NCBI GenBank assembly: GCA_902384675.1
Contig: CABMCT010000025.1
Span: 2,791 to 66,790, forward strand
Source of the DNA: an uncultured archaeon
GTDB lineage: Archaea > EX4484-52 > LFW-46
Direction of reading: 5' to 3'
Length of the DNA: 64,000 bases
The notes beneath the pieces were generated by a model. The model was given only the letters and a program-made list of their open reading frames with translations. It ran no database searches and was not told where the DNA came from. Shown here one piece after another: positions 61,129-64,000 of the stretch. A program made the position numbers and the translations under genes. How positions within the stretch are numbered: the stretch's first letter is position 1; every line of letters starts with the position of its first letter.

Positions 61129-61320
61129 AAAATCAGGAATAAAAACAATCCACCAAAAGATTTTAAGGCAGTTAAGAAAGTAATAAAAACGTTAGTTTCT
61201 GGATTCGCCGAGTTTGCTAAGGAGCATCCTGAATTACTCGATGATAAATCCAAATGAAATAAAGCAAAGATTTTTAAAAATGGTCCCCAAATAAGCTATG
61301 TTCATTCTATTAGTTTTAAT

Positions 61321-61403
61321 GGATGGGTAGGGAAGCGGTAACCCGCCAGACTGTCAATCTGGTGCCCGCAGGGGCGTCGTGGGTTCAAATCCCACCCCAT
61401 GAC
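61321..61403 (+). tRNA. aberrant tRNA-Asp(GUC)-like sequence (possible micro-intron; imperfect acceptor stem)
   Basis: The anticodon arm CCAGA-CTGTCAA-TCTGG and the T-arm GTGGG-TTCAAAT-CCCAC are canonical. An extra 12-nt hairpin GCCCGCAGGGGC sits in the variable region. In the acceptor stem GGATGGG/CCCATGA, only 5 of 7 positions pair. Confidence 0.45.
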
Positions 61404-61479: not shown

Positions 61480-61953
61480 TTAAATTTTAGAACCCCCTTT
61501 GTTGATTAACCGCGCATAATCTCCAAAATCCACTGTCCATTGATGCCGGGACCTGTCGTGCCATTTTTCAAATGCCTCCTTATAGTGTTCATCAAACACC
61601 TTTCGAGTACATGCATTAACAGTCATGAAATGCTTGATTATGCTTTCAAAATCCAGCTGTCCCTTGTCCGCCATAATTCTGGCAAGGCCGATATGCTTCA
61701 CATGATGGCATAAGTCGCAGAGAGCGATAAAGCCGGTAAGTTTCTGTATGTGCTTCTGGTCGTCATATTCCCAGATCTCGTGGCAGTTCAGTTTGCCGGA
61801 AGCCCCGCAAATTCCGCATTTATGATTATAATCTTCATACGACTTTTTGCGCACTTTGTCCCATTCCTGCGTAGATAACACTTTGCGCATGTTGTTATAC
61901 CAAGACGTGGATGGAACGAGTTCGATTGTTAATTTTAAAGCCATGACCATCAC
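61480..61953 (-). CDS. HNH-like zinc-binding protein
   Basis: ELVPSTSWYNNMRKVL...CGICGASGKLNCHEIWEYDD...LCDLCHHVKHIG has a CxxC..H..CxxCH pattern typical of a small HNH-type family. Overlaps the upstream gene by 4 nt. Confidence 0.5.
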   Translation of the reverse strand: MMVMALKLTIELVPSTSWYNNMRKVLSTQEWDKVRKKSYEDYNHKCGICGASGKLNCHEIWEYDDQKHIQKLTGFIALCDLCHHVKHIGLARIMADKGQLDFESIIKHFMTVNACTRKVFDEHYKEAFEKWHDRSRHQWTVDFGDYARLINKGGSKI

Positions 61954-62780
61954 TTTCCGGGCAAGAAGAGCTGTTGGCTGCGCACTTTTAGCCTGTATTT
62001 ACCATCGCTTGTTTTTTTGACTTTCTTGTTTTTGAGCAGCAGATTCAAAAAACGGTTTAGTGAAGGTTTGTCCAATTCTGTCCTCTTTAGCAGATCTTCT
62101 TCGGACAAATCTTCCCTGTACAGCTGGAGGTATATTGCAAGATACGGGTATGTTTCTTGTTCGAGGTCTTTCAGGAGCTTGTTATATATTGGTACTTGTA
62201 TATGTTCCCTTTCCTGCATCTCCTCGATTCGCTCCAACAGATAGGACTTCCAGATACTGGACGCGCCCCCTTTGCTTTGGTCGGTTATTTCGTCGTATAT
62301 TGTGTTCCAATTTATTCCGGTCTTAAAGAGCGCAACACAATCCTCATAATCACCGGCCCTCGAGAATACTGACTTCAACAGAAATATGTCTTCAGATGAC
62401 AGCATGCTTACCACCAGATTGCTATAAGTGCCTTTGATTTTCGAGCGGGCAATCATATTCTTTGAAAGCGAGAGCTTGCCGCAGATAATTTTCAGGAATA
62501 CGTCGAACCGGTCATTTTGGCGGTTGTATATGCCTGCCGGCTCAAGGTTCTTGTACTCTTCAGTAAGCGGCCTGGATTCAAACCCCAATTTTTTCAGCGT
62601 ATTTACAAATGTGCCTAATTCCTCCCTGGTCTCCAAAACGACATCGATATCTTTAGTAGCATCTTTCAGCCCCGAGAACATTAATGCTGCTCCGCCAAAT
62701 ACGTACAGGGTAACCTTTTTACTCAGTTTTTTGCCAATTTCGCCAAAAAGAGCATCCAACTCTTTAGTATTTGATATCAT
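61950..62780 (-). CDS. minimal nucleotidyltransferase-fold protein with a C-terminal wHTH
   Basis: VTLYVFGGAALMFSGLKDATKDIDVVLE shows the NTase GG...DxD pattern. The C-terminus LLKRTELDKPSLNRFLNLLLKNKKVKKTSDGKYRL is wHTH-like. Confidence 0.55.
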   Translation of the reverse strand: MISNTKELDALFGEIGKKLSKKVTLYVFGGAALMFSGLKDATKDIDVVLETREELGTFVNTLKKLGFESRPLTEEYKNLEPAGIYNRQNDRFDVFLKIICGKLSLSKNMIARSKIKGTYSNLVVSMLSSEDIFLLKSVFSRAGDYEDCVALFKTGINWNTIYDEITDQSKGGASSIWKSYLLERIEEMQEREHIQVPIYNKLLKDLEQETYPYLAIYLQLYREDLSEEDLLKRTELDKPSLNRFLNLLLKNKKVKKTSDGKYRLKVRSQQLFLPGK

Positions 62781-63669
62781 ACAATTCAGCCTTCTGTTTT
62801 ATTTCTTCCGTGGTGGGATATTCTCTTATGGTTTCACCCTTAAGAATCGCATTTATCTTGTTTATATATCCGCGTAATTTGTATTTTTCTTCAATATATT
62901 TAATATCCAGTAAGCCTTTATTCTTTAGATAAAATAATATTGTGAATAATCTTTTCCTCATGTTGTCTGAGCAAAGGGCTGCGTGAGCAAACACATCGTT
63001 GATACCTAATTTCTGCGGAGGCATACAGAAATAATTATGAGTTAGTCTAACTGGTATTCCATACTTGTCAAATACGGAAAATGCCGTAAACGTCGCTGTT
63101 TTTTCGTCTATTTTTAAATTTGCAGGCACCTCAAATAATTTCAAATCTTTAGTTTCATAAAGTACTCTGGATACTGTCGGAAGATTCGTATAAGCCAAAA
63201 CATTCTGATATTTAGAGCAGCTCTCCAAAAAATCAACTAATTCGGACCACAGAACGTTGTTTAATTTGTAATATCTGCCCTGCTTTACGACGACCCCGTA
63301 TTTCAAAAAGCCCCTGAGATGCTTGTAAATTAGCGGCTTTGAAAGCCCTGACAGGTCGCGGATTCGTTTCCCGGTTCTTTTAGTAAAAAGCAGCATCAGA
63401 ACATCCAGCCGGGAATCTGCCAGAATTTCTTCAAAGTTTGTTCTAGGATGCTCTAAAAGCAGGTTCCTGAGGTAGTAAGCGTGTACATTGCTTGAAATCG
63501 AATATTGGGTACCCTTTTTTTCCAAAAAGCCCTTCTCCTTTAAGTCTGTAATCGATTTAGAGGTATATTGCTGTGTGAGCTTAAGCTGGCCTGCTGTCTC
63601 TTTAGAGGTACCGCTACCTTTGCTATATATTAGCTCCAATATTTTCAGCTGGGTTTTTGTCAATCTCAT
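62764..63669 (-). CDS. HTH protein (MarR/TrmB-like N-terminus, AbiEi-like architecture)
   Basis: LTKTQLKILELIYSKGSGTSKETAGQLKLTQQYTSKSITDLKEKGFLEKKG. ATG at 63669 is preferred over the GTG at 63678. Overlaps the NTase gene by 17 nt. Confidence 0.55.
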   Translation of the reverse strand: MRLTKTQLKILELIYSKGSGTSKETAGQLKLTQQYTSKSITDLKEKGFLEKKGTQYSISSNVHAYYLRNLLLEHPRTNFEEILADSRLDVLMLLFTKRTGKRIRDLSGLSKPLIYKHLRGFLKYGVVVKQGRYYKLNNVLWSELVDFLESCSKYQNVLAYTNLPTVSRVLYETKDLKLFEVPANLKIDEKTATFTAFSVFDKYGIPVRLTHNYFCMPPQKLGINDVFAHAALCSDNMRKRLFTILFYLKNKGLLDIKYIEEKYKLRGYINKINAILKGETIREYPTTEEIKQKAELYDIKY

Positions 63670-63681
63670 AAGTATCACATT

Positions 63682-63842
63682 AGATTAAAAATATATCAAT
63701 TTTAATCTTATATTATACTGTTAATATAGCTTTATAAATCTTTAATATGGTTATTTCACGCACTTTTATGTAATAAATGCGTATTAGTGTTATTTATCAA
63801 TAAAAAGTATATTATTAGATTAAAAAATAGAATATTTAATCT
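63682..63842. promoter_or_regulatory. two copies of an operator-like palindrome (AGATTAAAA N9-10 TTTTAATCT)
   Basis: First inverted repeat arms at 63682-63690 and 63700-63708 (9 bp, perfect). Second at 63817-63824 and 63835-63842 (8 bp). Both share the flanking ATTAGATTAAAAA...TTAATCTTA. The first begins 13 nt upstream of the HTH gene ATG. Confidence 0.55.
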
Positions 63843-64000
63843 TAAATTATATTATTTGCTCCCAAAGCACTCAAATTATCAGGATAAAAACAATCTACCA
63901 ATATGTCTTATTATGGCAAACGAAAAGAAAGATGGCCCGGAAGAAAAATACCCCGAACTCTGGGAAATCCTGAAAAAGAAAGGGTACGTTGGAAAAATAA

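Follow-up and report, generated by a model that had tools for sequence, protein, structure and literature searches.

An archaea-wide gene pair of a tandem winged-helix protein and a DUF6036 nucleotidyltransferase, with an HNH gene as its probable passenger in one lineage

The subject of this report is a group of three genes at positions 61480-63669 of a 64,000-nucleotide stretch (the window) of contig CABMCT010000025.1 (assembly GCA_902384675.1), which belongs to the metagenome-assembled genome (MAG) of an uncultured archaeon. The MAG is 1.2 Mb in size and 89% complete, and its nearest named relatives are bins assigned to 'Candidatus Nanohalarchaeota'. The three genes, referred to here as g1, g2 and g3 in their order on the minus strand, are predicted to encode a regulator-like protein with two winged helices, a DUF6036 nucleotidyltransferase (NTase) and an HNH-type protein, respectively. 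The g1-g2 pair is one copy of an accessory two-gene module that is distributed across the archaea, and the structural conclusions taken by themselves, which we hold with high confidence, are that the pair is conserved and that g3 is its passenger. As to function, analogy with the AbiE and MenAT systems makes it probable, at a level of confidence that we would call moderate, that the locus represents an autoregulated toxin-antitoxin or defence module accompanied by a separate, hitchhiking HNH gene.

Evidence for the module comes from the strict linkage between g1 and g2. When one genome per species was scanned, 332 relatives of g2 came to light, and the best 80 of these 332 loci were analyzed with hidden Markov models (HMMs) built from our own alignments. 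Upstream sequence is available at 79 of these loci, and in every one (79/79) the gene immediately preceding the g2 homologue, on the same strand, is g1-like; the organisms in question span the Nanohalarchaeota, Woese-/Nanoarchaeota, Methanosarcinales, Thermoplasmatota, Bathyarchaeia, Nitrososphaerota and others. Conservation of the gene neighbourhood among homologues, which the preliminary description of this locus had left to be checked, is borne out for g1 and g2. Six metagenomic g2 loci with 60-79% identity all have a g1 homologue of ~300 amino acids (aa) that overlaps g2 by 17 nucleotides (nt), and none of them has g3. The two genes also occur as a single open reading frame (ORF) of ~530-600 aa; such fusions were found at eight loci, seven of them within the 80-locus set (L146, L165, L170, L172, L178, L180 and L182) and the eighth at L023, where the ORF encodes 572 aa.

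The pair is accessory in nature. Seven of the 61 related genomes carry g2, and a genome from the same genus lacks both g2 and g3; comparison with this genome in search of an empty site detected only shared backbone genes further to the right, on other contigs, and no clean junction. In the window, the pair adjoins an island of type I restriction-modification (R-M; HsdR) and AbiE genes, and homologous pairs reside on 94 haloarchaeal plasmids. One of the plasmid-borne pairs is on pHV4 of Haloferax volcanii DS2 (L266, record 443575-445307), where HVO_RS03780, a helix-turn-helix (HTH) protein that matches the HMM of the g1 C-terminal domain (C-domain) at E=1e-28, overlaps by 4 nt with HVO_RS03775, named 'DUF6036 family nucleotidyltransferase' in RefSeq; an ISH51 transposase gene is a neighbour of this pair. 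Several individual loci depart from the simple two-gene arrangement. Two g1-g2 pairs stand in tandem at L121, and a second g2-like gene lies near each pair at L123 and L145. At L019/L103 (G018:C42), the g2 orthologue (75% identity) is broken by one in-frame TAG codon downstream of an intact g1 orthologue, and this interrupted gene may be an inactivated toxin gene. In the Nanohalarchaeota-type MAGs represented by L002-L004, the pair occupies one and the same site, flanked by smc on one side and scpA/scpB on the other (L020 and L002 are one contig).

The preliminary description had reported three overlapping genes, and all three ORFs are indeed present on the minus strand. From its ATG start, g1 (62764-63669) encodes 301 aa, with an alternative GTG start at 63678; g2 (61950-62780) encodes 276 aa and g3 (61480-61953) ~154 aa. 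The reported 17-nt overlap between g1 and g2 (62764-62780) was confirmed and recurs in orthologous loci, whereas the 4-nt overlap reported for g2 and g3 depends on the start codon assigned to g3. It is true only if g3 begins with GTG at 61953; a start at ATG 61950 reduces it to 1 nt, and a start at ATG 61944, where the closest homologues begin (MALKLTIELVP), leaves a gap of 5 nt to g2. One of the two ATG codons, at 61944 or 61950, is the likely start, and g2 and g3 abut whichever start is taken.

The assignment of g2 to the nucleotidyltransferases is based on its match to DUF6036 (PF19502), which at 25.7 bits exceeds the Pfam gathering cut-off of 23.6. When 42 homologues of g2 were compared with Pfam, DUF6036 was matched by 42/42 (best E 2e-11), DUF2204 by 13/42 and AbiEii (PF08843) by none at E<=1. 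The NTase domain comprises residues ~1-170, and in the alignment of the 42 homologues K39.A41-T42-K43-D44-I45-D46, K136, R141, D144 and D147 are invariant, while G29-G30 and D93 are nearly so. The preliminary description would have given up its interpretation for an NTase devoid of catalytic residues in combination with an HNH-like protein of a housekeeping family; g2 has the GG...DID and RFD catalytic motifs in intact form, and from their conservation it follows that its catalytic apparatus is intact. We infer that g2 is an intact Mg-dependent nucleotidyltransferase, the residues being visible in the alignment and the activity being predicted from them. The gene had been characterized earlier as a minimal NTase joined to a winged helix-turn-helix (wHTH) domain, and the first part of this characterization is well founded; the C-terminal winged helix (residues ~205-268; 61977-62168, minus strand) is weakly supported by wHTH profile matches and is missing from many homologues. 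Our searches detected no viral relatives of g2, whereas viral members of the g3 family are numerous, and a literature search found no paper on DUF6036.

The product of g1 has the appearance of a DNA-binding regulator with an additional domain of its own. Profiles of the MarR/HTH_24 and TrmB types match the protein at residues 3-51 and 94-134, and the AlphaFold (AF2) model, with a predicted local distance difference test score (pLDDT) of 89, has two winged helices and, after them, an alpha/beta C-domain at residues 142-296. Taken together, the HTH_24/MarR/TrmB-type matches and the model place the first winged helix at residues ~3-58 (63496-63663), and HTH profile matches and the model place the second at residues ~85-136 (63262-63417). 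The C-domain, delimited here as residues 140-301 (62767-63252), resembles HVO_2833_C (PF24271), which matches this region in 14/20 homologues of g1 at E ~1e-6, a sub-threshold level (29.7 vs 34 bits); g1 itself is not among the matching sequences. Within the C-domain, T195 and Y297 are invariant and H229, P285 and E289 are near-invariant. A profile of the domain recovered 619 clusters (50% identity) from among 1.84 billion representative proteins, and in the best 150 matches, with shorter entries that resemble fragments set aside, the domain lies either at ~135-300 of proteins of 280-320 aa or in proteins of 530-565 aa, which is the size of the fused g1-g2 forms. The uniformity of its position among these matches ties the domain to one architecture, so that at the level of sequence it is confined to proteins with two winged helices and this C-domain (wHTH2-CTD) and to their fused forms.

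Attempts to relate the g1 protein to better known families were less informative. Foldseek searches with the g1 model returned only tandem winged-helix proteins (SelB, RPC62 and ScpB) and were uninformative on the C-domain, and sequence and profile searches of the PDB with g1 and g2 gave generic wHTH matches only. The AbiEi families of Pfam were not matched by g1, and AbiEi_4 was matched by one distant homologue, in its wHTH region only. The idea that the C-domain might be a degenerate copy of the g2 NTase was considered and found to be unsupported (hhalign P=0.13). Nothing relevant was found in the literature on HVO_2833 and DUF2204.

Palindromic putative operators had been noted directly upstream of g1, and there are two copies of them. 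The proximal one, TAGATTAAAA-N10-TTTAATCT (63681-63708), is located 12 nt before the g1 ATG and centred ~25 nt upstream of it; the distal copy (63816-63842) lies in the divergent intergenic region, 135 bp from the proximal copy. These elements, which have no strand, are not random occurrences: the pattern TAGATTAAAA-N9/10-TTTAATCT has exactly two matches in the 64-kb window, both upstream of g1, where 0 would be expected. In the proximal copy, the spacer of the GATTAAA-N11-TTTAATC core is TATA-like. The same core is found 5-15 nt upstream of g1 in L001, L002/L105, L003, L013, L014, L103 and L104, loci with proteins that are only 58-79% identical, and as a feature of the sequences it is a phylogenetic footprint. 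More distant loci have other palindromes, for example AAAATGCGAA-N14-TTCGCATTTT in L113 and L161. A palindrome that is built around a TATA-like spacer and kept in orthologues points to autorepression, and we infer from the spacing that the g1 transcript may be leaderless, with a TATA box bracketed by the operator arms.

The AbiE systems (COG5340 with COG2253/DUF1814) are type IV toxin-antitoxin systems that act in abortive infection; their antitoxin, composed of a wHTH and a C-domain, uses inverted repeats to repress its own promoter, and the gene after it encodes an NTase toxin in which motifs I-IV occur (PMC3985639). The resemblance of g1-g2 to an HTH/NTase pair of this type, proposed in the preliminary description, is upheld in matters of organization. 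Both are overlapping bicistrons in which a regulator with wHTH and C-domain comes first and a Pol-beta-type NTase second, both have inverted repeats in the promoter, and motifs I (hG[GS]) and II ([DE]h[DE]h) are intact in g2 (G29-G30, D44 and D46). Motifs III (KLxAaxxR) and IV (+DxxD) can be compared with LLKSVxxRxGDxxD of g2, which has a similar pattern but a different spacing. There are differences as well. The g2 protein belongs to DUF6036/DUF2204 and not to DUF1814 (PF08843, 0/42); g1 combines two winged helices with an unrelated C-domain, whereas AbiEi (COG5340) has one N-terminal wHTH; g2 often has a wHTH of its own; and g1 and g2 have been fused repeatedly. The window has an AbiE pair elsewhere, at 43.2-44.8 kb, with a genuine AbiEii gene (PF08843, E=1e-25), and the earlier statement that g1-g2 is distinct from it agrees with our finding that hhalign comparisons of the g2 and g1 profiles with this AbiEii and with the upstream gene in the AbiEi position detected no similarity, within the limits of sensitivity that single-sequence templates impose. 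When PADLOC-DB 2.0.0 was searched, g2 and g3 matched 0 families and g1 gave only generic wHTH matches to Csa3/CasR models.

A second point of comparison is provided by the MenAT systems, the NTase toxins of which, MenT1 and MenT3, belong to the DUF1814 family (PMC7450476, PMC10435456, PMC11375011). Binding of the antitoxin causes T39 of MenT1 to be auto-phosphorylated, which shuts off tRNA nucleotidylation (PMC11375011). The NTase domain is compact in g2 as in these toxins, and at the level of motifs only, T42/D44/K136/D144/D147 of g2 resemble T39/D41/K137/D152 of MenT1; the differences are that g2 belongs to another Pfam family and that its partner protein is unrelated. By analogy, this MenT-like layout suggests that g2 might nucleotidylate the 3' ends of RNA and might be controlled by auto-phosphorylation. 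We would class the g1-g2 pair as a variant of the NTase-type toxin-antitoxin systems, and g3 as a member of an already catalogued phage HNH family.

From these comparisons a mechanism can be put forward, conditional as to repression, toxicity, target and mode of neutralization. A dimer of g1 would bind GATTAAA-N11-TTTAATC through its winged helices, and since a TATA-like element ~25 nt ahead of the g1 start codon lies between the palindrome arms, such binding would repress transcription of g1-g2(-g3). It would be the C-domain of g1, specific to this family, that keeps g2 inactive, either by binding to it or by inducing its auto-phosphorylation, for which the predicted site is the invariant Thr two residues before the catalytic Asp, as in MenT1 and MenT3. 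Loss or titration of g1, as might result from virus infection or when the element is lost, would set g2 free and bring about growth arrest. The released g2 would nucleotidylate RNA 3' ends, which on the analogy of MenT and AbiEii would be the acceptor ends of tRNAs, and translation would stop. The g3 gene would be that of an unrelated HNH nuclease that landed behind g2 in one lineage and is expressed by read-through.

Some of our observations weigh against this interpretation. No AbiEii/DUF1814 or PADLOC model is matched by g2 and no AbiEi family by g1; recurrent fusion of the two genes is unusual among classical toxin-antitoxin pairs; and the fixed position between smc and scpA/scpB looks like that of a vertically inherited gene pair rather than a mobile one. 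With respect to the passenger status of g3, this gene abuts g2 without a spacer, and its three adjacencies to g2 homologues (in the window, at L016 and at L133) exceed the expectation from pure chance; they fit the notion that both genes are cargo of genomic islands rather than functional partners.

The fusions, which occurred in at least eight lineages, and the fixed chromosomal position in several related MAGs would be more readily understood if g1-g2 were a physiological regulatory module, in which the NTase reversibly modifies RNA or g1 and g1 serves as a DNA-binding regulatory subunit. The invariant Thr and Tyr of the g1 C-domain, together with its near-invariant His, would provide a possible site of modification. 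We consider this explanation unlikely, while giving it more weight than the other alternatives below. A module of that sort would not be expected to be missing from most relatives (it is present in 7/61), including the same genus, to neighbour R-M and AbiE genes within a variable island, to have plasmid homologues beside an insertion sequence (IS) element, or to show tandem pairs and a stop-broken NTase gene. A toxin-antitoxin or defence module, by comparison, is in keeping with all of these: patchy distribution, R-M/AbiE neighbours, plasmid carriage, tandem duplicates and an orthologue interrupted by a stop codon are the reasons why the pair fits a toxic accessory element.

The roles of the two proteins might also be the reverse of those proposed above. 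In the HEPN/MNT systems, the part of the antitoxin is played by the minimal NTase, which modifies the partner protein (PMC7641770). These systems resemble g1-g2 in that two genes, for a minimal NTase and a second protein, form a module of very high abundance in archaea; they differ in that g1 is without the HEPN motif, has DNA-binding domains and is encoded first. If g1-g2 functioned in this type VII-like manner, g2 would nucleotidylate and thereby silence a toxic g1 C-domain, and the invariant Thr and Tyr of that domain could accept the nucleotide. The Rx4-6H motif of HEPN proteins is absent among the conserved residues of the C-domain, however, no HEPN family of Pfam is matched, and Pfam and PDB searches returned no nuclease-like match to the domain. 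The regulator-first gene order and the MenT-like T-x-D of g2 are a better fit to an NTase that is the toxin, and we regard the reversed assignment as improbable.

The third gene had been described as an HNH-type zinc protein, and this identification is supported. Its product matches phrog_5200, 'HNH endonuclease', over the full length at E=9e-45, with weaker matches to three other HNH PHROGs. C43, C46, C54-H55-E56, C76, C79-H80 and H84 are invariant in the family, giving the motif CxxC...CHE...CxxCHxxxH of a beta-beta-alpha-metal fold with a Cys4 zinc site and a putative catalytic His on its first strand; the canonical HNH Asn is not evident. The AF2 model (pLDDT 92) has a strand-strand-helix core at residues 53-83. 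Its matches in the BFVD structure database are HNH endonucleases, and the best matches to g3 in the PDB are only DotN/IcmJ, at weak scores (E ~0.1-0.2), with no close solved relative. We found 527 homologues in bacteria and archaea, with 58-87% identity and in unrelated contexts; 5/61 related genomes carry the gene. In viruses the family is represented in 242 GenBank (cultured) phages and by 196 relatives in IMG/VR contigs, the phages including PVP-SE1 (gp121), rV5-like phages and phages of Klebsiella, Cronobacter and Campylobacter. The g3 protein is ~48% identical to phage members of phrog_5200, such as gp121 of Salmonella phage PVP-SE1 and the homologue in rV5, and has the same Cys4 and His residues; it differs from them in its location, since its gene follows an NTase module on an archaeal chromosome. 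No biochemical characterization of the phrog_5200 family was found.

In contrast to g1 and g2, the homologues of g3 are not linked to the other two genes elsewhere. Only one of the 80 species-level loci (L133) has g3 near a g2 homologue, at a distance of 10 nt and on the opposite strand, and g1 or g2 was found at none of 66 further metagenomic g3 loci. G007 has both g2 and g3, on different contigs. The closest parallel to the window is L016, a 1.4-kb contig of a close relative, on which a spacer of 65 nt separates a g2 homologue (73% identity) from a g3 homologue (87%) downstream of it. The g2-g3 order exists only in the window and at L016, which makes the adjacency peculiar to a single small lineage. 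In the window, g3 is probably co-transcribed with the pair by read-through, as the spacing of the genes indicates. The three-component system envisaged in the preliminary description, which would itself have abandoned the idea if homologues of the three genes proved never to be linked elsewhere, is not supported by these results. That g3 is a genuine effector or partner of g1-g2, cutting for example nucleic acids that the NTase has marked or released, is very improbable, for its position on the same strand against or across the g2 stop codon, the recurrence of the order at L016, the 10-nt proximity at L133 and the enclosure of the whole segment by a genome-unique repeat are outweighed by its absence from 78 of the 80 species-level loci and from all other close orthologues of the pair (79% identity), by the opposite strand at L133 and the spacer at L016, by the lack of g1 or g2 at the 66 g3 loci and the separation of g2 from g3 in G007, and by the common occurrence of g3 as a solitary phage gene.

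The repeat in question, TAAAAACAATCYACCAA, is present on the plus strand at 61140-61156 and at 63885-63901. It has a length of 17 nt, or ~24 nt if one indel is allowed, and its right copy falls within the leader of a divergent gene for a 144-aa protein (ATG at 63915), a homologue of which is convergent to g3 at L016. No further copy exists anywhere in the 1.2-Mb assembly. The two form a direct repeat, and a tRNA-like gene, g3, g2, g1 and the promoter region lie between them. Similarity beyond the 17-24-nt repeat is weak, and the bracketed segment has no integrase gene. The repeat may be an att-type duplication or the remnant of a duplicated gene leader or start. The tRNA-like gene (61321-61403, plus strand) was identified by ARAGORN as an 83-nt tRNA-Asp (GTC) and scores 49.8 bits with the Rfam tRNA model; it lies 77 nt beyond the stop codon of g3, to which it is convergent. 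A 12-nt insertion is present at the position of the short variable loop, and tRNA-Asp would normally be without a long variable arm. None of ten related loci has a tRNA gene beside the g1-g2 pair.

The contexts of the g3 family in other genomes yielded a number of separate observations. A protein with a Bles03 domain (PF08939, E=3e-26) adjoins the g3-family gene, upstream or downstream, in nine loci (among them L006-L008, L025, L033, L066, L072 and L073), and this association may be real. In nine loci (among them L011, L012, L053, L054, L060 and L068-L070), the neighbour is a DEDD-exonuclease-like protein of ~140-190 aa, which has no Pfam match and contains the motifs DIETIG...YAFN..FE...AHNR.CLLKERD; in phage PVP-SE1, an exonuclease gene likewise comes after the g3 homologue. 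The g3-family HNH gene is present twice on each of two IMG/VR contigs (L200/L229 and L199/L234). On metagenomic contigs of one related group (L042, L053, L055, L060, L062 and L068-L070), the g3-family gene is found among leuC, leuD and leuB, as read from the translations, which means that the HNH gene can reside in housekeeping operons.

Because g3 is a passenger, this locus ought not to enter catalogues as a three-component system of a new type. Beyond the interpretation of this one locus as a toxin-antitoxin or defence module, we tentatively raise the possibility that proteins of the wHTH2-CTD type together with DUF6036 proteins constitute an unrecognized, archaea-centred family of NTase toxin-antitoxin or antiviral systems, a broader proposal that is more doubtful than the narrower one. 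In such a family, the g1 C-domain would sense a signal and gate the NTase, perhaps by way of auto-phosphorylation at the invariant Thr near the catalytic Asp; the fused forms would be single-chain sensor-effectors, and in the sub-lineage of the window the recruitment of a phage-type HNH nuclease as a further output might have begun. If the pair works as proposed here, a large archaea-specific branch would be added to the AbiE/MenT family of NTase toxins, one that current finders of defence and toxin-antitoxin systems miss, as the lack of a PADLOC match to the g1-g2 module illustrates. Experiments would have concrete handles in an operator that is conserved, in a partner domain that is exclusive to the module and in fusions that occur naturally; since Haloferax volcanii has a homologous pair on pHV4, the idea could be tested in an archaeon that is routinely used in the laboratory. 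An enrichment in AbiE-like systems and a paucity of CRISPR (clustered regularly interspaced short palindromic repeats) have been reported for DPANN and other archaea with small genomes (PMC12988326), and for this reason compact modules like g1-g2 may be a real part of the immunity of these organisms.

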